64,000 nucleotides of DNA from Cenarchaeum sp. (GTDB lineage: Archaea; Thermoproteota; Nitrososphaeria; Nitrososphaerales; Nitrosopumilaceae): the NCBI GenBank assembly GCA_965212015.1, contig OZ243037.1, positions 64,001-128,000 on the forward strand, given 5' to 3'. The notes beneath the pieces were generated by a model that was not told the origin of the DNA, searched no databases, and worked only from the letters and a program-made list of their open reading frames with translations. The translations under genes and the position numbers were made by a program. Each line of letters opens with the position of its first letter. Position 1 is the first letter of the stretch. Shown one piece after another: positions 6,460-26,679 of this stretch.

Positions 6460-7569
6460 ATGTTTGAGAGCCTCAAGTCCGCTTTTTCGGGGGTGGCCAA
6501 AAGCTTCGGGCAAAGGCAGCTAAAGGAAAAGGACATCGACGCCGCACTCTCCGGCATGGAGCTCGACTTGATGAGATCCGACGTGGCAGTGGAGGTCATT
6601 GGCGCCATAAAATCGGATCTAAAGTCAAAGATAGCCGGGACAAGCGTCGACAGGCACGGCATTGAGGATTTTGTCAAGGACAGCCTAGTCGGGATAGTGT
6701 CGGGCATCTTTGACGGCGCCAGAAAAGTCGACCTGCTGGGGGACATTGAGAAAAAAAAGACGGCCGGCGAGCCGTACGTGATAGTGTTTGTCGGAATAAA
6801 CGGGACCGGCAAGACTACCAGCCTCTCCAAGCTTGCGCGCCTGTTGCAGGACTCAAAGGTCTCAGTCGTAGTCGCCGCCGCCGACACGTTCCGGGCCGGC
6901 GCAATCGAGCAGCTCCGCGAACACACAAAAAACCTCAACCTGAAAATAGTGGCGCAAAACTATGGGGCCGATCCCGCCGCAGTCTCGCGCGACGCGGTGC
7001 TTTATGCAAGATCGCACAAGGTCGACTGCGTGCTAGTCGACACGGCAGGGCGCATGCAGACAAGCAAGAACCTCATGGAGCAGATTGAAAAAATCATAAA
7101 CGTCGTAAAGCCGGACTTTATCATCTTTGTGGGCGACGCCCTTGCGGGAAACGACACGGTAAACCAGGCAAGGGAGTTTTACGGGCACACAAAGTTTGGC
7201 GGATCCATCCTGGCAAAAAGCGACGCCGACGCAAAGGGCGGGGCCGCCCTGTCGATAGTAAAGATTACCGGCTCGCCCATACTGTACATGGGGGTGGGGC
7301 AGCGCTACGAGGATTTGGTGCCGTTTGAAAAGGACTCGTTTCTGCGCGCCGTCTTTGGCACGACAGGCGCGCCGGCAGCTGATCCGTTTGAGGGCATATC
7401 TGCTGGCGACATTGACTCGTATAACGCGGCGTACGGCACGGCGCCCCCCGAGAACGACGAGCAGACAGCATCCGTTATTCGGGAGTGGATACGGTCCGGA
7501 AGGCCGGCGCCTGGCGGGCCGGGGAAAACTAGAAAGCCGAGCTCGTTGCTTGGTAGGTTTGGAAAATGA
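6460..7569 (+). CDS. ftsY: Signal recognition particle receptor FtsY
   Basis: GINGTGKTT, DTFRAGAIEQL, DTAGR, KSDADAKGGAALS. Confidence 0.96.
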   Translation: MFESLKSAFSGVAKSFGQRQLKEKDIDAALSGMELDLMRSDVAVEVIGAIKSDLKSKIAGTSVDRHGIEDFVKDSLVGIVSGIFDGARKVDLLGDIEKKKTAGEPYVIVFVGINGTGKTTSLSKLARLLQDSKVSVVVAAADTFRAGAIEQLREHTKNLNLKIVAQNYGADPAAVSRDAVLYARSHKVDCVLVDTAGRMQTSKNLMEQIEKIINVVKPDFIIFVGDALAGNDTVNQAREFYGHTKFGGSILAKSDADAKGGAALSIVKITGSPILYMGVGQRYEDLVPFEKDSFLRAVFGTTGAPAADPFEGISAGDIDSYNAAYGTAPPENDEQTASVIREWIRSGRPAPGGPGKTRKPSSLLGRFGK

Positions 7570-8468
7570 AGCTTGGAACCAGGGACTTTCTGTCCTTTGC
7601 AGAGCTTGACGGCGGCGAGACCGAAAAGCTCGTGGATCTTGCAATACGCCTCAAAAACGGGGGCCAGTCAGGCCGCCTCGAGGGCAGGACCCTGGCCATG
7701 ATCTTTGAAAAGCCATCAACTAGGACGCGCGTAAGCTTTGAGGCCGGCATGCACCAGCTTGGCGGCCACGCCATATGCATGGCCCCCGGCGACATGCAGC
7801 TCTCGCGCGGCGAGACTATCGCCGACACCGCACGCACGCTCTCAGGATACGTCGACGTGATAATGGCGCGCGTCTTTGAGCACTCTGTGCTAGAGACGCT
7901 GGCAGAAAACTCGTCAGTACCGGTGATAAACGGCCTCTCTGACTCGTTTCACCCCTGCCAGACACTCGCCGACCTGATGACCATACGTGAAAAAAAGGGG
8001 CGGCTTGCAGGACTAAAGCTGGCGTGGATTGGCGACGGCAACAATGTCTGCAACTCTGTGATTTACGGCTGCGCCAGGGCCGGCATTGACGTATCGGTTG
8101 CCACGCCGCGCCAGTTCGGGCCGCTGCCAGACGTGGTAGGCGAGTCAAGAAAGGCAATCGACGTGGAGCTAAGCGACGATCCGTCCGAGGCCGTAAGGGA
8201 TTCTGACATTGTAATGACTGACACGTTTTCGTCGATTCACAACACGGATGCGGGGCGCACCGAAAAGTTCCTGCCAAAGTTCCAGGTCGGCGACTCTTTG
8301 ATGGGGCAGGCCAAGGATGACGCGATATTCATGCACTGCCTTCCGGCCAAGCGCGGACAGGAGGTCGCAGCGTCCGTAATCGACGGGCCGCAGTCCGCGG
8401 TGTGGAACCAGGCAGAAAACAGGCTGCACTCCCAAAAGGCGCTGCTGCTCTCAATACTGGGCGCCTGA
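7566..8468 (+). CDS. argF: Ornithine carbamoyltransferase
   Basis: FEKPSTRTRVSFE, HPCQTLAD, GDGNNV, MHCLPAKRG. Confidence 0.96.
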   Translation: MKLGTRDFLSFAELDGGETEKLVDLAIRLKNGGQSGRLEGRTLAMIFEKPSTRTRVSFEAGMHQLGGHAICMAPGDMQLSRGETIADTARTLSGYVDVIMARVFEHSVLETLAENSSVPVINGLSDSFHPCQTLADLMTIREKKGRLAGLKLAWIGDGNNVCNSVIYGCARAGIDVSVATPRQFGPLPDVVGESRKAIDVELSDDPSEAVRDSDIVMTDTFSSIHNTDAGRTEKFLPKFQVGDSLMGQAKDDAIFMHCLPAKRGQEVAASVIDGPQSAVWNQAENRLHSQKALLLSILGA

Positions 8469-8565
8469 GGCCTGCATTATGTGGTGTTTGGGCGGCTATT
8501 GGAGACGCGTAATGCCGTGACTGGGCGCGAATCCCGTAAAATGTCCTGACATGCCAGGCGATCAT

Positions 8566-8812
8566 TTAGAAATACCTGTGTTTCATAAATACCAAAACAT
8601 GTTTTTTTGCACTCTGTAAATGATTAAATTTTCAGGAGCGCGTTTTCTAACTTCGTCAATTAGTTGAGTGCATCTTTTCATTGAGTGGTGCCGGATGATC
8701 TCCCCGGTAAACTCTGCAACAGTTTCCATCACGGCCTTGTATGTATCCGCATGAAGGGTCTTTAAAAAGAATTAAACGTCGAGTTAAAATTAACATGAAG
8801 TACATGGGTCAT
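8566..8812 (-). pseudogene. RelE/ParE-like toxin, frameshifted
   Basis: Reconstructed across two frameshifts: MTHVLHVNFNSTFNSF/KTLHADTYKAVMETVAEF...RKRAPENLIIYRVQK/HVLVFMKHRYF; size and IIYRV...HR pattern fit RelE. Confidence 0.5.
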
Positions 8813-8831
8813 ATAAAAACATAAAGAGGAT

Positions 8832-8927
8832 TTATTTATCTTTGCAAGACTTGTCATACTCTACAAATATTTCGTCGTCTTTCTTGCTCCACTCTGGAGT
8901 AGGTTTAAGCTTGGCTGGCTTTGCCAT
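8832..8927 (-). CDS. 31-aa small ORF, candidate antitoxin
   Basis: MAKPAKLKPTPEWSKKDDEIFVEYDKSCKDK*; TTATAAA about 22 nt upstream; directly precedes the RelE-like relic. Confidence 0.45.
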   Translation of the reverse strand: MAKPAKLKPTPEWSKKDDEIFVEYDKSCKDK

Positions 8928-9160
8928 GCCTGATCTGCCCTGCTCGAATTTATAATCGTTTATAATCTGGCTCAATCAGCCGGGCCGGACACGAGGCAGA
9001 TTCCTCCCAATCCGCCGGATCCGGACGGCGGGATCAGGCGTGCCCTGGAATCCGGGATTTTGCGCGGCGAGCTGGCGGTGGCATGCGGCAGAAAAGACGT
9101 CCTTCTGAGGATCCCTGCAAAGCCCGAACGTATCGGTCACGGCACGCAAGGCCCGGAGGC

Positions 9161-9212
9161 GGCACGGGTGGGGGGATCACGTTATGAGGTAAGGGAGTTG
9201 TGACACAGAGCA
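9161..9212 (+). mobile_element. Solo right end of the IS5-family element found at 20917-21955
   Basis: ggcacgggtgggggatcacgttatgaggtaagggagttgtgacacagagca-like sequence nearly identical to 21904-21955, including the terminal inverted repeat. Confidence 0.85.
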
Positions 9213-9322
9213 GATTGTCGAACCGATGGGGCGCCCCCAAAGGGGCATCACCCACGCCATATCTCTATGGATACTATTTTTCAGGTAATATTATTACATA
9301 CTTGGTATATTTTAACATTTAT

Positions 9323-9405
9323 GGGCTAGTAGCGAAGTGGCCAAACGCGGCTATTTTTCAGGTAGCAATCTCAGGATTACATGGGTTCAAATCCCATCTA
9401 GCCCA
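9323..9405 (+). tRNA. Atypical class II tRNA: Leu-type body with TTC (Glu) anticodon
   Basis: Acceptor GGGCTAG/CTAGCCC + A73; D arm GCG/CGC with GG; anticodon stem GCTAT/GTAGC, loop TTTTCAG; 14-nt variable arm AATCTCAGGATTAC; T arm ATGGG-TTCAAAT-CCCAT; T6 run immediately after. Confidence 0.85.
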
Positions 9406-9685
9406 TTTTTTGCCGTGCCTAGTCATAGATCACGTTACTGAACCTCATAATCTGCAGATATGGGCAATGATAAACTCCTCTTTTAAGGAACTTGTTGCTC
9501 GTACTGTTCATCCGGCAGTCCACTATTGCGCGGGCCATAATCTCCGTGTTGTCGTATCAACTACAGGGTGTCTATACCCCACAATCGCCTCGGGCGGGGC
9601 AGAAAAGATGCCGGCGGCGATCTGACCGGTTGCGCGAATTTTCATCTAACGTTTATAAGAGCATATTCAATTTTTTGCGCTATAG

Positions 9686-10165
9686 ATGGCCCATTCAAGG
9701 ATATTGAGGAGACTAAGGGAGCAAAAAACCAACTACAAAAAGCGCAGCGGCATGCTCATGGGGCGCCGCGACTTTGTAACGGTCCAGATTACCAACGAAA
9801 ACACGCAGGTTCAGGTCCATACCCCAGAGATGGCAGGCGACAAGACTGTGGCCTCGGCGCATTCCAGGTACCTCTCATCGAAGGGCTGGAAGGGCTCGCG
9901 CAAAAACATCCCGGCCTCGTACCTTACGGGATACCTGGCGGGAAAAAAGGCAGTCAAGAACGGCTCCAAAAACGCCATAATGTACACCGGGACTAGAAAG
10001 TACACCGAAAGAATGGCAGCTGCGCTAAAGGGGGTAATTGATGCGGGCCTCGAGATTCCCGCCGACGCCGAAACGTTTCCGGCGCAGGAGAGAATCAACG
10101 GGGATCACCTGAATGTAAAAAACAATGTCATGCAGATAAAATCAAAGATAGACGAGGAAGCATAA
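9686..10165 (+). CDS. rpl18: 50S ribosomal protein L18
   Basis: RRLREQKTNYKKR, NIPASYLTGYLAGK, GVIDAGLEIP. Confidence 0.96.
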   Translation: MAHSRILRRLREQKTNYKKRSGMLMGRRDFVTVQITNENTQVQVHTPEMAGDKTVASAHSRYLSSKGWKGSRKNIPASYLTGYLAGKKAVKNGSKNAIMYTGTRKYTERMAAALKGVIDAGLEIPADAETFPAQERINGDHLNVKNNVMQIKSKIDEEA

Positions 10166-10833
10166 TGAGTCACATGTCAAGACAATCACGGCCGCAGCGG
10201 GAATCGGGGGACCGACCACGGCGCAGGCGGGAGCCAAAACCCGAGCCGCCGTGGGTTCCGCAGACCGCGCTGGGACGGCTGGTTCATTCCGGCGGCGTCG
10301 CCTCGCTCGAGGAGATACTAGAGCAGGGCGGAAGGATACAGGAATCGGGAATCATAAAAAAACTGCTTCCGGATCTAAAGACCGAGGTAGTCGACGTGGG
10401 AATAATACAGAAAATGACGTCCAACGGCCAGTCGACCAGATTCAAGGCCATAGTTGCTGCCGGCAACGAAAACGGCTATCTTGGAATCGGGCAGGGAAAA
10501 TCCAAGCAGATGAGAATTGCAATTGAAAAGGCAAACAACCAGGCGCTGCTCAACGTCAGTCCGATCAAGCTCGGATGCGGCAGCTGGGAGTGCAGGTGTG
10601 ATCAAAAGCACTCCGTTCCATTCAAGGTAAGGGGAAAGGGCGGAAGCGTGGTAATCGAGATTCTTCCAGCGCCAAGGGGGCTTGGTCTTGTGGCCGGCGG
10701 AAAGATCCGGCGGCTGCTAGAGCTTGCCGGGCTCAAGGACGCATACACCACGGCAAAGGGTTCCACCCCGACGATGAACTCCACTTCAAAGGCGGTGCTT
10801 GAGTGTCTCAGGCAGACGTTCAGCCAGGGTTGA
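10165..10833 (+). CDS. rps5: 30S ribosomal protein S5
   Basis: WVPQTALGRLV, GCGSWECRC, PAPRGLGLVAG. Confidence 0.97.
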   Translation: MSHMSRQSRPQRESGDRPRRRREPKPEPPWVPQTALGRLVHSGGVASLEEILEQGGRIQESGIIKKLLPDLKTEVVDVGIIQKMTSNGQSTRFKAIVAAGNENGYLGIGQGKSKQMRIAIEKANNQALLNVSPIKLGCGSWECRCDQKHSVPFKVRGKGGSVVIEILPAPRGLGLVAGGKIRRLLELAGLKDAYTTAKGSTPTMNSTSKAVLECLRQTFSQG

Positions 10834-16736: not shown

Positions 16737-17975
16737 ATGGAAAACATCAAGGTAGAGAATTTCAAAAGCTTCAACAGTATTGATCTGGCTTTGGGAAACC
16801 TAAATGTATTGATTGGTGCAAATGCATCTGGAAAATCCAATTTCACCCAAATTTTTAATTTTCTGCACGATGTCACCATATATGGTTTGGATAACGCCAT
16901 ATCTTTGCAGGGTGGAATAGAATTTTTACAAAATTTTAAAAACAAACCTGACAAAAATTTGGTTTTTGAATTGAGCCTTTCAATAAGATCCGATTTTTGG
17001 CTTCCTTTCTTTATGGTGAAAAAAACCCCTTTTGTAAATAAACTTACTAAAGCAGTTTATAGATTTGAGATTAAATTGGGGAAAAAATCTGGTTTCCAAA
17101 TAATTGATGATCGTTTGAAAATGTTTTGTGAATTTAAGAATATTTCGGAACCAGACAGTAAAAAATGGGATGAAAAAATCATAATATATAAAAACAAGAA
17201 TAAAATTGCCGTTAAAATCGACTCTGAAAATAAGATTAAGATGAAAGAAAAAGACTTCTATTTTTTCCCTGATGACAATAAACTATCAAGCAAGGAATTG
17301 ATTTTAAATAATGATATGCTTTCTTTTTTATTACGTCCACAACTTGGAAATTATCTACGGGAACTGATCGTTTATGATTTTGATCCAAAACTGGCAAAAA
17401 AATTAGTTGACTTGAAAGGAAAGATTGACTTGGAAAATGACGGTTCAAATTTAGCCATAGTGCTAAAAGATATCATTGAAAATAAAGAACAAAAAAGAAA
17501 ATTCATCAATTTGATAACTGAACTTTTGCCGTTTATCCGGAGCGTTGAGATTGAAAAATCCGCGGACAAGTCTATTTTATTCAAATTAACAGAAATATAT
17601 TTTAAAAATCAACAATTGCCATCGAGTTTAATTTCAGACGGTACCGTAAACATGACTGCGGTAATTCTTGCATTATTTTTTCAAGAAAAACCACTAATAA
17701 TAATAGAAGAGCCAGAGAAAAACATCCATCCCTCATTAATTGTGAAATTGGTGGAAATAATCAAAGATGCATCAAAACTGTCCCAAATCATACTCACCAC
17801 CCACAATCCAGAACTGATCAGACATGTGGGAATTGAGAATATTTATCTGGTAAGCAGGGATGATGATGGATTTTCAGACATTACCAAACCACAAAAATCC
17901 CTCGAGGTTAAAAAATTTCTAAAACATGAAATGCAGATTGAAGAGTTGTATGTACAAAATCTTTTAGGTGATTAG
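16737..17975 (+). CDS. ABC/AAA (AAA_21-like) ATPase of a putative defence module
   Basis: ENFKSF, Walker A GANASGKSN, signature ISDGT, Walker B IIIEEPE, H-loop TTHNP; AT-rich. Start could be further upstream (ORF open from 16635). Confidence 0.9.
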   Translation: MENIKVENFKSFNSIDLALGNLNVLIGANASGKSNFTQIFNFLHDVTIYGLDNAISLQGGIEFLQNFKNKPDKNLVFELSLSIRSDFWLPFFMVKKTPFVNKLTKAVYRFEIKLGKKSGFQIIDDRLKMFCEFKNISEPDSKKWDEKIIIYKNKNKIAVKIDSENKIKMKEKDFYFFPDDNKLSSKELILNNDMLSFLLRPQLGNYLRELIVYDFDPKLAKKLVDLKGKIDLENDGSNLAIVLKDIIENKEQKRKFINLITELLPFIRSVEIEKSADKSILFKLTEIYFKNQQLPSSLISDGTVNMTAVILALFFQEKPLIIIEEPEKNIHPSLIVKLVEIIKDASKLSQIILTTHNPELIRHVGIENIYLVSRDDDGFSDITKPQKSLEVKKFLKHEMQIEELYVQNLLGD

Positions 17976-18509
17976 CATAAAAATACTGTATGTATTGTTG
18001 GAAGGATCAGATGATGAGCGTTTTTTTAATTCTGTCTTGAGGGAGAAATTTACGAACAAATATGATCACATAAAACCATACAAGTATCCCAAAGCTCAAA
18101 AAAGCGGTTAAAAACATTCATTGAGGCGTTAAACAAGGAAAAAACCCACTATCTTGTTTTGACTGATTTTGATGCTGCAAAATGCATGACGGATAAAAAA
18201 CAGCAGTTTCGGGCACAAAAAACCCGTAATGTTGATGTTTCGAGATTGTTCATAGTAAAACCAATGATTGAAAGTTGGTATTTGGCCGGATTGGATTCCA
18301 AATCATCTCGCTCCTTGATGATCGTTTATCGTTCAAATACGGATGACATCACTAAAGAACAATTTGAACAATTAATGTCAGATAAATATTCTTCAAAAAT
18401 TGACTTTATGATTGAAATACTTAAAAAATTTGATTACAATACCGCAGTCAAACAAAACACATCATTCCAATATTTTGATCTAAAATACAAGATCCGCCTG
18501 GGTTTTTGA
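17968..18509 (+). pseudogene. TOPRIM-like nuclease partner of the ATPase, 1-bp frameshift near 18087
   Basis: GTG overlapping the ATPase stop gives ILYVLLEGSDDERFF; the downstream frame gives YLVLTDFD and PMIESWYLAG; EGxDD, DxD and ESW are TOPRIM/DUF4276-like motifs. Confidence 0.75.
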
Positions 18510-18979
18510 AGCCACATTGTCGATCATAAATTATTTTGCTTTACAGGCTATGCTCTAAATAATGATAAACGTTCAAATTGTTTCTGAAATGCTCTGATAT
18601 GGGTACGCGAAAAAGTTCATGAGATATTAAAGTAGCAAAGTCTGATCTACCAATTGGGAATTTTGTCTAAAAGATTGTCCGAGCCGCATGAACTTTGGAT
18701 CTTACCTATAGCATTACCACATTTTCTCTACAATCTCGTAATGCTCAGAATGGACCAGCTCGTACTCGACCAATCTCCAGCATTCTTCGATGGCTCCGAG
18801 TTACGGTCAGTATGCGATGGTGGATTGTCAGTAATGATCATGACGTCATACCGGTGTGAATTGGACAGCCTTGACACGGGTAGGAGGATTACGGTATGAG
18901 GTCAAAGACTTGTGATATAGGGATACCTCGATGTAATTTGATCTTTTCTGAATCTTTAAACCAAAAAATATAATTATTT

Positions 18980-19909
18980 TTATATATCCGTAAATTGTGA
19001 TAAATCACTTTGTTTTCCGACAATTACTTGTAGCGCACTTTTTAATATTTCGGTGGGTATGATTGACATTGTTTTTATATCATCAGAAATTATGTTTTTT
19101 GCCCCATCACTATTTGTGGCGATTATCAAATCATATAGTTTAATTTTTCCAGTTTTGAATATGGGAATAGACAAAACATGCTTTTTGAATCCCTTCATTT
19201 GACTTATATATTGTTCCAGTAATTCATCGCCATTTTTTAAATCCTTCCAATTTTGATTGCCAAAGAATAAAGTCATGGTTTCTGCCATAGATTCATTCGT
19301 TTTGACTGCACTTTGGTGTCGAGCGATATATGGAGTCATAAATGTGAAAAAAATATCCGCGGTTTGAATTGATAAAAGACGTTTCATTAAATCCCAACGA
19401 ATTTCTGCAAACCCTTTTGGATCAATGAATATCAAAAATGCAGTTCCGCGTCTCTTGTACCCCTCAATGAATTTTACACTATCTTCAAAACTTCTCACTA
19501 CCGGCTTATAATCGTGTATTCCAACATTATTTTTTAAACTTTTTAATCGTGAATCCAATAATGAGATGGATTTGGGATCAATATCCGAAAAAAAATAATC
19601 CGTAAACGGCGTTTCTACATTTCTAAAAGCAGCTATAAGCGGTGAACCCGGAAATTTTTCATTTTTTGAGTCTATCCTAAATGTAATCAATCCCGTTCCA
19701 CAATGGGTATCGACAAAAAACCATCTGTCAAACCCATTTTTGCGGATAATTCTAACAAATTCTCCGATATAATAGTCCAAAACAAGTATTTTTTTTATCG
19801 ACCAAATATCTCCCGGCGATGCCCTTAAAGTGCCATCTTCGATATCTTTGATTTTTTCCACCAAATCAGTGATTTTTTTCTTTGCCCAGAGATACGGATC
19901 AACGACCAT
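18980..19909 (-). CDS. tcmP: Three-Cys-motif partner protein (SAM-dependent methyltransferase-like)
   Basis: WSIKK, FVDTHCGTG, GSPLIA, FLIFIDPKG, YDLIIATNS; divergent from a DUF5131 gene. Confidence 0.88.
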   Translation of the reverse strand: MVVDPYLWAKKKITDLVEKIKDIEDGTLRASPGDIWSIKKILVLDYYIGEFVRIIRKNGFDRWFFVDTHCGTGLITFRIDSKNEKFPGSPLIAAFRNVETPFTDYFFSDIDPKSISLLDSRLKSLKNNVGIHDYKPVVRSFEDSVKFIEGYKRRGTAFLIFIDPKGFAEIRWDLMKRLLSIQTADIFFTFMTPYIARHQSAVKTNESMAETMTLFFGNQNWKDLKNGDELLEQYISQMKGFKKHVLSIPIFKTGKIKLYDLIIATNSDGAKNIISDDIKTMSIIPTEILKSALQVIVGKQSDLSQFTDI

Positions 19910-20031
19910 ATATACTATCAAATATATATTCGATTTAAACATATTTGGGACTAATAATTGACACATTGTCAATTCTACGCAAAACAAACATAATAAGAAA
20001 CACTTATGGAATAGCATAACAAGAAACAAAC

Positions 20032-20865
20032 ATGGCTTTGGGATCTGAAATCGAATGGACAGAGGCGACTTGGAATCCGAGTACGGGATGCACTAAAATC
20101 TCCCCCGGATGCAAGAACTGCTATGCGGAAAAACTCTCGCACAGGCTTAAATTAATGGGGCTAAAAAAATACAAAAACGGGTTTGATTTTCTCGAGCATT
20201 CCGACGATACAGACCTGCCAAAACGATGGAGAAAGCCAAAGAAAATCTTTGTCAACAGCATGTCGGACATGTTTCATGAAAAATCCTCTTTTGAGTTTGT
20301 CATAAAATGCTTCAACACAATGATTGAGGCTGACAGGCATATCTATCAGGTTCTCACAAAACGTTCCGGCATAATGAATGATTTCTCAAAAATTTTTTTT
20401 GATTATTACGGTCATGTGATACCAGATCATGTTTGGATGGGAGTGAGTGTTGAGAATGCGGATTATACTTGGCGTATTGACGAGTTGAAAAAGGTAAAAT
20501 GTCAAACCCGGTTTATCAGCTTTGAACCGCTGATTGGCAGGGCCGGAAAGTTAAATCTTGAGGGAATTGACTGGGCTATAATCGGCGGCGAGAGCGGCTC
20601 GGGATTTAGAAGAGTCAAGAAGGAGTGGATTTTGGAGATCATCGAGCAGTGTAAAAAACAGAAAGTGGCGGTGTTTTTCAAACAATGGGGCGGATTTAGG
20701 CCAAAATCCGGCGGCAGGGTGATTAATCGCCGAAAATATAGCGAGTATCCAAAAATAACAAGAAAGAATCAGCTAAAAGATATTTATTTTGATAGCGTGG
20801 CATTTGCGGAATTATGTTTAAAATATGAATCAAAACTCAAACACCAAGAAATACCTGCGAATTGA
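20032..20865 (+). CDS. DUF5131 / phage Gp37-Gp68 family protein (radical-SAM-like Cx6CxxC)
   Basis: IEWTEATWNP, GCTKISPGCKNCYA, FVNSMSD, LTKR, SFEPL, GGESG, FFKQWGG. Confidence 0.93.
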   Translation: MALGSEIEWTEATWNPSTGCTKISPGCKNCYAEKLSHRLKLMGLKKYKNGFDFLEHSDDTDLPKRWRKPKKIFVNSMSDMFHEKSSFEFVIKCFNTMIEADRHIYQVLTKRSGIMNDFSKIFFDYYGHVIPDHVWMGVSVENADYTWRIDELKKVKCQTRFISFEPLIGRAGKLNLEGIDWAIIGGESGSGFRRVKKEWILEIIEQCKKQKVAVFFKQWGGFRPKSGGRVINRRKYSEYPKITRKNQLKDIYFDSVAFAELCLKYESKLKHQEIPAN

Positions 20866-20916
20866 TTAGGTGTGGTGCGTAATTAACCGGCTTTTCAATC
20901 ATTTTCGGCCGTTAGG

Positions 20917-21955
20917 TGTTCTGTGTCACAAGCTGCCTAATTTTTCCCAGCGTAAACTAATCGAGGCTGCCTGTCCATACAATCCGGCCCAAAAAGCTCT
21001 AGATCATGACTGCACGACCACGCCGTGGGTAAGAATTCAGACTATGGCCGCAGCTTAAAGGACCGCGGAACAATCCATATCGACAAACGTGTCCTGAACT
21101 CATTTGGGAGAGATCGGAATAGGATGAACAAAAGACGGGACGCAGATTCCCATGTTCTGGCGAGATGATTGCCGTTCTGGCATACATCCGCCTCTACTTC
21201 ATACTGCCATACAGGCAGACACAGGGCCTTGCAGAATCGCTGTTTGACAAGCATACTATAGTGCCATCGTATTCTACCATTTGTAAACGGATCAACAACC
21301 TGGATTTGGATCTTACCGCAGGCAAAAAGACACACGGCACAATCGTAATCGCAATAGACAGTACGGGAATAAAGGTGACAAACAGGGGCGACTGGATGCG
21401 AGAAAAGCACGGCGTGACAAGAAAGGGATTCATAAAATTGCACGCCGCAATGAACGTGAATTCCGGTAGGGCGACGAGGTTTGTAGTTACAGATGAAAGC
21501 TCGCACGATTCAAATCATTTTACAGAACTGGTAGAACAATCACAGCAATGCGGAGACGTGTGCTGGCAGACGGTGCGTATGATTCCGGCGTGATATTTGA
21601 CGACATGTATTACAATAATATTAAACTGGCAGTACCAGTCAGAAAAAATTCCAGATCTGATGCGCCGTCATATCCGCGCCGGATGGCAGTCAGGATTCAA
21701 AAACACGACTATTCGGAATGGAAGAAATCCTCCGGATATGGAAAACGATGGATTGTCGAATCGCTGTTCTCTGCGATAAAGAGAATGTTCGGAGAATCAG
21801 TCATGGCGCACAAAAAAGAGAACATGATGCACGAGATGGCGCTAAAGATGGCCATATACAACAGGATGGTGCTGCCGCATGACGTCATGGAATGGACTGC
21901 TCTGGCACGGGTGGGAGGATCACGATATGAGGTAAGGGAGTTGTGACACAGAGCA
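20917..21955 (+). mobile_element. IS5-family (IS903-like) element, about 1.04 kb, transposase broken by two frameshifts
   Basis: Terminal inverted repeats tgttctgtgtcacaa / ttgtgacacagagca; LPYRQTQG, IAIDSTGIKV, KLH, LADGAYDS, GYGKRWIVESLFSAIKRMFG. No target-site duplication seen. Confidence 0.92.
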
Positions 21956-26582: not shown

Positions 26583-26679
26583 GCCGGGATCGCCTAGCCT
26601 GGTAGGGCGCGCGCCTGGAAACTAAAGCCATAAAGCGCGTTCTCGCAAGGGAACGGGAGTTCAAATCTCCCTCCCGGCG
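26583..26679 (+). tRNA. tRNA-Ser(GGA) with 13-nt intron at canonical 37/38 (26621-26633)
   Basis: GCCGGGA/TCCCGGC acceptor, G73, CGCGC/GCGCG anticodon stem, long variable arm TTCTCGCAAGGGAA, GGGAG-TTCAAAT-CTCCC. Confidence 0.95.

Follow-up and report, generated by a model that had tools for sequence, protein, structure and literature searches.

Bacterial allo-tRNAs are transfer RNAs (tRNAs) that are reportedly long-armed, sporadic in occurrence and equipped with an anticodon that does not match their charging identity; the first two features recur in the archaeal gene described here, and the third may do so. The nev-tRNAs of nematodes are class II tRNAs derived from tRNA-Leu, which according to the part of the source drawn on here are charged only with leucine and decode GGG as leucine in vitro (PMC3333845). 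In Thaumarchaeota, tRNA genes are also known as sites of integration: 39 of 68 elements lie in tRNA genes, and their attachment (att) sites are short, mostly 8-25 bp with a median of 17 (PMC6563490, in the passages used here). Our subject is a tRNA gene at 9323-9405 in a 64,000-nucleotide stretch of DNA from Cenarchaeum sp. (contig OZ243037.1, positions 64,001 to 128,000), the whole of which is called the window below. This gene is an intact class II tRNA gene with a leucine-type body and the anticodon UUC; the label 'tRNA-Glu' that standard tools give it is almost surely wrong as a functional statement. Judging from its sequence, we favour, with a probability of roughly 0.4, the reading that it specifies a leucine-charged, mistranslating tRNA that reads the glutamate codons GAA and GAG (together GAR) and is carried by mobile DNA.

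A leucine-type tRNA body with the anticodon UUC

ARAGORN calls window positions 9322-9406 (+) as tRNA-Glu (ttc), the sole intron-less tRNA of the window, and the Rfam model RF00005 matches 9323-9405 with 56.1 bits over model positions 1-71, i.e. over the full model and above the curated gathering score of 29. The gene and its parts are the following.

9323-9405 (+): class II tRNA gene with a long variable arm, anticodon UUC and A73, CCA not encoded (ARAGORN, Rfam, Leu and Ser models)
9350-9366 (+): anticodon arm GCTAT-TTTTCAG-GTAGC, with the anticodon TTC at 9357-9359; its pairs are preserved through changes in relatives
9367-9380 (+): variable arm AATCTCAGGATTAC, 14 nt, whose A, G and T occupy columns invariant for these letters in canonical Leu tRNAs
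9406-9411 (+): T6 run directly after A73, a likely terminator, with a length variation of one T in some contigs

Read from the sequence, the gene forms a standard 7/5 cloverleaf in which every stem is paired. The acceptor stem GGGCTAG/CTAGCCC is followed by A73 (A at 9405), the D stem has 3 bp (GCG/CGC) with a short D loop, the anticodon stem GCTAT/GTAGC includes a U31.G39 pair, and the T arm ATGGG-TTCAAAT-CCCAT has a loop that agrees with TTCRANY. The anticodon loop of 7 nt, TT-TTC-AG, has both U33 and a purine (A37) beside the anticodon. The original prediction had described such a complete 7/5 cloverleaf with TTC centred in a 7-nt loop and with a T6 run directly behind A73, and this description stands. 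The register of the loop is supported by the relatives of the gene described below, since pairs 30-40 and 31-39 stay paired through changes: pair 31-39 is U.G in the window gene, U-A in a Nitrosopumilus copy and C-G in a third form deduced from contig differences. Other registers, i.e. with CAG or TCA in central position or with a 4-bp stem and a 9-nt loop, were rejected, because the alternative stems are unpaired and the relatives keep the 5-bp stem and the 7-nt loop.

As a check on the assembly, Logan contigs from four runs were aligned to window positions 8800-10200; runs X1 and X2 may represent the source sample, and run X3 belongs to a different study; no RNA data set turned up for these positions. 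Both the anticodon loop and the TTTTT run have the reference letters in contigs of X1, X2 and X3, which speaks against an assembly error in the T run. One X2 contig (record 13) spans 9233-9568 with a single difference from the reference, at 9338, and an X3 contig (record 20, 9233-9393) has 7 differences, none of them among those listed for 9354-9372. There is strain-level variation within the module to which the gene belongs: one contig variant of X1 has an extra A behind 9399, in the 3' strand of the acceptor stem, and the T-run at 9406 is shorter by one T in contigs from several runs.

The leucine-type nature of the body emerges from several comparisons. In an nhmmer search with the tRNA, the host genes for Leu(CAG), Leu(GAG) and Leu(UAA) rank next after the gene itself and a same-genome paralogue, and no Glu or Asp gene is among the matches listed. 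Home-made models built from 7 canonical Leu and 6 Ser tRNAs give it 65.2 and 38.6 bits, respectively, and behave as expected with the tRNA-Ser(GGA) of the window (Leu model 50.4 bits, Ser model 85.5 bits). With a covariance model of the odd tRNA and its Nitrosopumilus relative, the odd tRNA reaches 105.9 bits, and all others in 151 family genomes stay at or below 71.3 bits; this search took in three genomes (G101, G115 and G116) that were counted only as genomes without a second family member. All nine of the best matches outside the genome that were checked are tRNA-Leu(GAG) genes. Aligned to six Leu tRNAs, the gene matches them closely in D-loop motif, variable arm and T arm, and the variable arm of one family Leu(GAG) differs from that of the relative with the anticodon GUC in just 1 of 14 letters.

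Canonical tRNA-Leu(GAG) genes of the Nitrosopumilus family (L097, L099 and, in the host, G000:C1:973746-973830) thus appear as the nearest relatives. They score about 70 bits with the model of the odd tRNA and have in common with it a length of 83-85 nt, the D-loop motif, the build of the variable arm, the loop YAG and the T arm. In contrast to them, the odd tRNA has all of the acceptor pairs 2-71, 4-69 and 5-68 swapped, a D loop that is 2 nt shorter and a replaced inner anticodon arm, with an anticodon NUC in place of GAG. Point mutation of a Leu gene does not account for it, since both acceptor stem and inner anticodon arm are replaced. A private, decayed allele of a Leu tRNA can also be discarded, because all relatives have NUC and five Leu genes exist elsewhere in the genome; orthologues with a Leu anticodon, which would have spoken for such an allele, did not occur, and the relatives carry GUC and AUC.

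In the archaeon Haloferax volcanii, the leucine identity set comprises A73, A47c-G47d in the variable loop and U47h, as given in the consulted part of PMC9976931, which cites Soma et al. 1999. A73 as well as A, G and T in the variable arm are invariant across two members of the odd family and six canonical Leu tRNAs, where the positions 47c, 47d and 47h are our own mapping onto the 14-nt arm. The genome has a single leucyl-tRNA synthetase (LeuRS), which is of archaeal type (G000:C1:702922-705756; TIGR00395, 991.5 bits, profile positions 3-938). By its anticodon the gene is not a Leu tRNA: this is UUC, in relatives GUC or AUC, and never NAG or YAA. With a Glu tRNA it shares the anticodon and not the body, which, apart from the T loop, is unlike that of the host Glu tRNAs and carries the 14-nt variable arm. 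In all these points, i.e. the Leu body, the Leu identity marks aligned with those of six canonical Leu tRNAs and the UUC anticodon on top of them (as called by ARAGORN and as read from the sequence), the analysis bears out the original prediction.

The odd tRNA is supernumerary. Separate canonical genes, whose existence had been proposed as a point to confirm, were located for Leu(UAG), Leu(GAG), Leu(CAG) and the intron-bearing Leu(UAA) and Leu(CAA) as well as for Glu(CUC) and Glu(UUC), so that all five Leu and both Glu tRNAs are present elsewhere in the genome. The canonical tRNA-Glu(UUC) at G000:C1:606266-606355 (+) has a 14-nt intron within the T loop and is missed by ARAGORN, which nearby gives a spurious 'tRNA-Gln' with a 177-nt intron. 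Similarly, tRNA-Ser(GGA) at window positions 26583-26679 has a 13-nt intron, is matched by Rfam with 44 bits and is detected by ARAGORN in intron mode only.

A compact module and its patchy distribution

The tRNA gene is the core of a larger unit, whose further components are listed here.

9227-9440 (+): unit in common with a decayed paralogue at G000:C1:131606-131788 (-) (blastn, mafft, nhmmer)
9257-9270 (+): near-palindrome CCATATCTCTATGG just upstream of the first direct repeat, present in all three aligned copies and able to fold into a hairpin
9274-9287 (+): upstream direct repeat DR1, CTATTTTTCAGGTA, a 14-nt exact copy of tRNA positions 28-41 located 77 nt upstream of them (-49 to -36)
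9285-9297 (+): AT-rich palindromic box GTAATATTATTAC, a likely TATA box, spaced as in the other tRNA genes of the genome
9351-9364 (+): second repeat copy DR2, within the tRNA (repeat search, genome-wide count)

An AT-rich upstream region had been noted previously; it contains a TATA-like box, TAATATTATTA, at about -37 to -27, where the other tRNA genes of the genome have theirs, and the 3' end of DR1 abuts this box. Since promoter box and T-run are placed as in host tRNA genes, transcription is plausible. The repeat word CTATTTTTCAGGTA occurs in the genome just twice, as DR1 and DR2, and the other 36 tRNA genes found by ARAGORN have at most 9 nt in common with their own 150-nt upstream regions. 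The repeat does not stem from a tandem duplication of the whole tRNA, as the upstream likeness spans no more than positions 28 to about 50; in local alignment the upstream region scores 32 against the tRNA, with shuffle means of 17-19 and best shuffles of 32-33. A C/D-box guide RNA on the opposite strand was likewise dismissed, by eye and not with a dedicated tool, because no box D lies beside the would-be guide.

The paralogue in the same genome is 71% identical over 189 nt, which include about 95 nt of upstream sequence and the T-run (blastn, nhmmer). It is dead: its T stem lacks 5 nt, base pairs are disrupted, and it is called neither by ARAGORN nor by Rfam. About 75 nt past its T-run and on the same strand starts a gene for a 164-residue winged-helix (HxlR-like) protein (L013 6038-6532 (-), i.e. 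G000:C1:131038-131532); no such gene follows the intact copy. The idea that the two copies represent the ends of a 58-kb element was abandoned, since they are mutually inverted and have core ribosomal genes between them, and since the pyrB-L18 neighbourhood is kept.

Among 400 other family genomes, a DNA search found three with matches at E ≤ 1e-6; Nitrosopumilus sp. G393 alone matches the unit in its full length, and in the other two the match extends over about 30 nt. This copy from a different genus is 81% identical over 154 nt; only window positions 9255-9408, a module of about 155 nt, are common to the two genomes. ARAGORN calls the Nitrosopumilus copy an 87-nt tRNA-Asp (gtc); it is flanked by genes for PAC2 and deoxyhypusine synthase, in a genome that also carries a class I tRNA-Asp(GUC). 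Within Nitrosopumilus, 2 of 151 genomes have the module. The second one (G366) has, at the same locus, one copy of the repeat without promoter and 5' half of the gene, is further decayed and is not called a tRNA; it looks like a product of recombination or slippage between the two repeats. Contigs of runs X3 and X4 contain yet another form, which differs from the window gene at 14-15 places. Its anticodon arm can be deduced as GCTAC-CTATCAA-GCAGC, with the anticodon AUC and U33 present, and it has five derived letters in common with the dead paralogue. All four lineages therefore have a loop with N34-U35-C36-A37, a number of lineages too small to be significant by itself. That the gene belongs to a small family with dead members had escaped the original prediction. 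At three loci the neighbours are pyrB and the L18 gene, a 112-residue open reading frame (ORF) and a winged helix-turn-helix gene, and the PAC2 and deoxyhypusine synthase genes, respectively, i.e. there is no partner gene in common.

Pattern scans added little to this family. In viral contigs they gave chance matches or none, with no tRNA at the matches checked, and in metagenome contigs first none and then 8 chance matches without a tRNA. Genome contigs gave 15 matches, of which only the Nitrosopumilus record is a relative; ARAGORN was run on two of the 15 (L031 and L035), and the other 13, bacterial records, were set aside by their titles.

In the tRNA, 67 of 85 columns (79%) are identical between the intact copies of the window and of Nitrosopumilus, and the 76 nt upstream (64 of 78 columns) are conserved as much as the tRNA itself; by our own count in the alignment, a handful of columns distinguish the canonical Leu(GAG) genes of these two genera. 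The two intact copies have changes on both sides of pairs 6-67, 11-24 and 49-65, one-sided changes with the pairing retained in pairs 30-40 and 31-39, and three pairs that are broken in the Nitrosopumilus copy. In a three-row covariation table the observed values were reached in 4 of 500 shuffles, and six slid registers lay far below; because its deletion was left uncorrected, the paralogue's row is in part misaligned at the 3' end, and reliance is thus placed on the two intact rows. As judged from these alignments, the stem changes between the intact copies are compensatory, which points to selection on the RNA fold. The upstream repeat co-varies as well: in the Nitrosopumilus copy both repeats read CTGTTTGTCAGATA, with 3 of 14 places changed and mirrored in both, and the upstream repeat of the dead paralogue is CCTATCAAG, identical to the word in the deduced anticodon arm of the AUC form.

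The surroundings of the gene in the window include two further features.

8469-9685 (no strand): intergenic stretch of 1.2 kb between pyrB (7566-8468) and the L18 gene (9686-10165)
9161-9215 (+): solo right-end relic of an insertion sequence (IS), its terminal 52-55 nt or so; the 1.04-kb multi-copy IS has a DDE_Tnp_1-type transposase and a full copy at 20917-21955

In four genomes of the same genus, the L18 gene is present in all four and a tRNA within 1.5 kb of it in none, and apart from a single 22-nt word none of them matches the gap. The spacing between pyrB and L18 in the two of them that were examined is about 35 nt and about 330 nt, both without the 1.2-kb stretch. Contigs of a second study join 9168 to 9591 via 82 other letters, so that 422 nt of the window (9169-9590) are replaced; these contigs are an allele without IS relic and tRNA unit. 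The stretch 9505-9551, which has no cover in X3 and X4, was left out of the evidence. Together with the relative in another genus, these findings agree with the original prediction that the gene looks acquired: it is acquired or mobile, and its presence varies among close relatives. The IS5 end predicted next to it exists in substance, as 9161-9215 is an IS terminus and the ORFs of this IS match DDE_Tnp_1 and DDE_Tnp_1_5. The tRNA lies outside the IS end, and other copies of the IS have unrelated flanks, which rules out the tRNA as a passenger of the IS. The RelE-like relic also proposed in the vicinity was not recovered: none of 14 stop-to-stop frames of 8477-9707 has a usable Pfam match, where twelve frames were without any match at the E limits applied (0.1 or 1), and three had sub-threshold matches at chance level (MLTR_LBD, DUF4027 and Poty_coat).

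Further observations concern the mobile DNA of this genome more generally. Copies of the IS are found at window positions 20917-21955 and at G000:C1:49279-50330, 990308-991350 and 1110147-1111194, with a partial copy at 495730-496503, and several solo IS ends are dispersed over the genome. In the window copy, the ORFs 21165-21593 and 21548-21946, matching DDE_Tnp_1_5 and DDE_Tnp_1, overlap, which suggests a frameshifted IS5-like transposase. Immediately before this copy, window positions 17000-21000 form an island of low GC content (30-42%, with about 51-55% around it). The AT-rich part of the insertion between pyrB and L18 contains an ORF of about 31 residues (MAKPAKLKPTPEW..., 8832-8931 (-)) without a Pfam match. 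At G000:C1:947273-947341 (+), 954134-954202 (+) and 1145196-1145260 (-) there are tRNA-like fragments with a long arm and a TTGAAAA loop, in which GAA takes the place of the anticodon; these three are nearly identical, and a degenerate fourth copy lies at G000:C1:664610-664738 (+). These fragments give weak, partial Rfam matches, are not called by ARAGORN and are not intact; by eye, their only resemblance to the odd-tRNA family lies in the T loop. Two of them form a direct repeat (91% over 277 nt) with a spacing of about 6.9 kb, immediately behind tRNA-Val(UAC), and look like the borders of an integrated element.

Mistranslation, recombination or decay as possible explanations

How might such a gene have originated and what could it do? 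In the favoured reading, its ancestor in the Nitrosopumilus family would be a gene resembling tRNA-Leu(GAG), whose acceptor stem and anticodon arm were rebuilt such that the loop came to show UUC. Palindrome, copy of the anticodon arm, TATA-like box, tRNA and T-run would make up a compact module of about 155-190 nt, which appears to be sporadic across genera and prone to decay. Transcribed from its own promoter, the tRNA would be charged with leucine by the single archaeal-type LeuRS, which would read A73 and the variable arm and ignore the anticodon. GAA and GAG would then be read as leucine at some low level, in competition with the two canonical Glu tRNAs. The result would be a natural mistranslating and possibly toxic tRNA on mobile DNA, similar in action to a nev-tRNA. 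Harm from misreading would fit the patchy spread and frequent decay of the module, which a silent gene fits equally well.

A number of observations weigh against this reading. The leucine identity rules derive from Haloferax and not from the present lineage, and host Glu tRNAs also carry A73, so that A73 does not exclude the glutamyl-tRNA synthetase (GluRS). Two of the four genomic copies are dead, and the Nitrosopumilus copy (G393) has a mismatch each in T stem and D stem and reaches only 36 bits with Rfam. The minimum-energy fold of the odd tRNA (-29.1 kcal/mol, z = -3.2) is not the cloverleaf: acceptor, variable and T arms are retained, but the D region is paired to the 5' strand of the anticodon stem. 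One lineage has A34, which is not normally used in archaeal decoding. Moreover, GAA (2.0%) and GAG (3.9%) amount to 5.9% of the codons in 615 long ORFs; for this reason any misreading beyond traces would be harmful, and an efficient leucine-inserting reader of GAR very harmful. The nev-tRNAs tend toward rare codons (PMC3333845), whereas the odd tRNA matches the abundant GAR. Finally, the upstream repeat follows the anticodon arm even in the dead copy, which argues for a process at the DNA level rather than for selection on decoding.

This last point fits a rather unlikely alternative, in which the module is mainly a unit of recombination or gene conversion at the DNA level with an att-like core, the anticodon is accidental and the RNA does not decode. 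DNA-level exchange, and not selection on decoding, predicts the co-variation of the repeats, which are exact, occur nowhere else in the genome, have no counterpart among 37 tRNA genes, change together in Nitrosopumilus and have, in the dead paralogue, an upstream word equal to that in the arm deduced for the AUC form, but neither a recombinase nor an element is available for it. The conserved near-palindrome beside the upstream copy, the one Nitrosopumilus locus that is left with a single repeat and without promoter and 5' half, as expected from recombination or slippage between repeats, and the shortness of thaumarchaeal att sites and their frequency in tRNA genes all point in the same direction. 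Yet just 63 nt separate the repeats, hence there is no element between them, and the ORFs that were scanned, within about 4 kb of the Nitrosopumilus copy and beside the two copies here, include no integrase. A DNA site also does not explain compensatory changes in the acceptor, D and T stems, and both genera have nothing but the module of about 155 nt in common. The repeat might also be a working partner of a decoding tRNA: the module may be a self-contained 'rogue tRNA' cassette, with a leucine-charged tRNA that would damage or reprogram translation at the acidic codons GAR or GAY and with the upstream copy serving as a partner in recombination or conversion that keeps the two copies identical, could pass on a new anticodon and could silence the gene permanently by deletion of promoter and 5' half. 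The pattern expected from such a deletion is seen in one Nitrosopumilus genome; as a whole, this more elaborate scenario seems distinctly unlikely to us.

Three further alternatives were weighed. It is unlikely that we are dealing with a tRNA-Leu-derived gene in decay, spread by recombination with mobile DNA, silent or nearly so, functionless and intact by chance. Half of the four genomic copies are indeed dead, the module is rare both in the family and within Nitrosopumilus, IS debris surrounds the gene, and the intact copies have diverged to 79% identity where canonical Leu(GAG) genes show a handful of differences; but mere decay sits badly with fully paired stems, a canonical T loop, U33 and A37, an intact promoter box and T-run, three double compensatory changes between the intact copies and an upstream region as conserved as the tRNA. 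Charging according to the anticodon, i.e. with glutamate here and aspartate in the GUC copy, would turn the gene into a spare, if odd, Glu or Asp tRNA that causes no mistranslation. UUC, U33 and A37 agree with the loop context of host tRNA-Glu, which likewise has A73, and U35-C36-A37 is retained in all four lineages; nevertheless we find this highly doubtful, as the body resembles host Glu tRNAs in the T loop only, nhmmer lists no Glu or Asp gene, and class I Glu and Asp tRNAs have no such long variable arm. Aspartate identity normally includes G73, and the GUC copy has A73. In addition, position 34 toggles between a Glu-type and an Asp-type anticodon, a switch that comes easily only to a tRNA whose charging enzyme disregards the anticodon. 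A role outside decoding, either as a decoy for anticodon nucleases that cut Glu or Asp tRNAs or as a source of aminoacyl groups for a non-ribosomal reaction, would accommodate the NUC-A loop of all lineages and a module that travels alone; with no partner gene common to the three loci and no linked nuclease or transferase, it is hardly probable at all.

Significance and comparison with described systems

Literature searches on archaeal, thaumarchaeal, allo-tRNA and variable-arm tRNAs turned up no class II tRNA of archaeal origin with an anticodon for Glu or Asp, and one review (PMC7609411) leaves Thaumarchaeota unmentioned. If the RNA of the leucine-charged reading is made and leucylated, this archaeon would possess a natural tRNA that violates the codon table at two of the commonest codons, on DNA that moves between genera. 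This would bear on drift of the genetic code, on how mobile elements might attack or tune the translation of their hosts and on the tolerance of mistranslation, and would extend the phenomenon known from nev-tRNAs and allo-tRNAs to the third domain of life. If the upstream copy is a recombination partner, it would represent a new way to change or silence a tRNA gene. Even a silent gene would be useful for annotators to know of, given the 'tRNA-Glu' label that standard tools assign to it.

As at the thaumarchaeal att sites in tRNA genes (Krupovic et al. 2019), there is a short direct repeat, here of 14 nt, that matches part of a tRNA gene. In the passages of that study used here, the att repeats flank kilobase-sized elements and nearly always lie at the 3' part of the gene (PMC6563490), whereas the odd tRNA has repeats 77 nt apart, the first of them upstream of the gene, that enclose only promoter and 5' half. 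Of the features expected from an att scar, the repeat matching part of a tRNA is thus present, and an integrase-bearing element is absent from the loci examined, where the neighbours are housekeeping genes. The odd tRNA is not an allo-tRNA either: the bacterial allo-tRNAs of Mukai et al. 2017 have 8/4 or 9/3 acceptor/T branches, according to the part of PMC5389517 that was consulted, and the odd tRNA is archaeal with a 7/5 branch.

There is a likeness to the nev-tRNAs (Hamashima et al. 2012), with which the odd tRNA has in common a Leu-derived class II body, a foreign anticodon and its position as an extra beside a full canonical set. The nev-tRNAs are charged with leucine because LeuRS ignores the anticodon; they are eukaryotic, vertically conserved in nematodes and shown to be expressed and leucylated (PMC3333845), whereas the odd tRNA is archaeal, patchy and rare. 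It is further set apart from the nev-tRNAs by the upstream repeat of the anticodon arm that co-varies with the arm itself.

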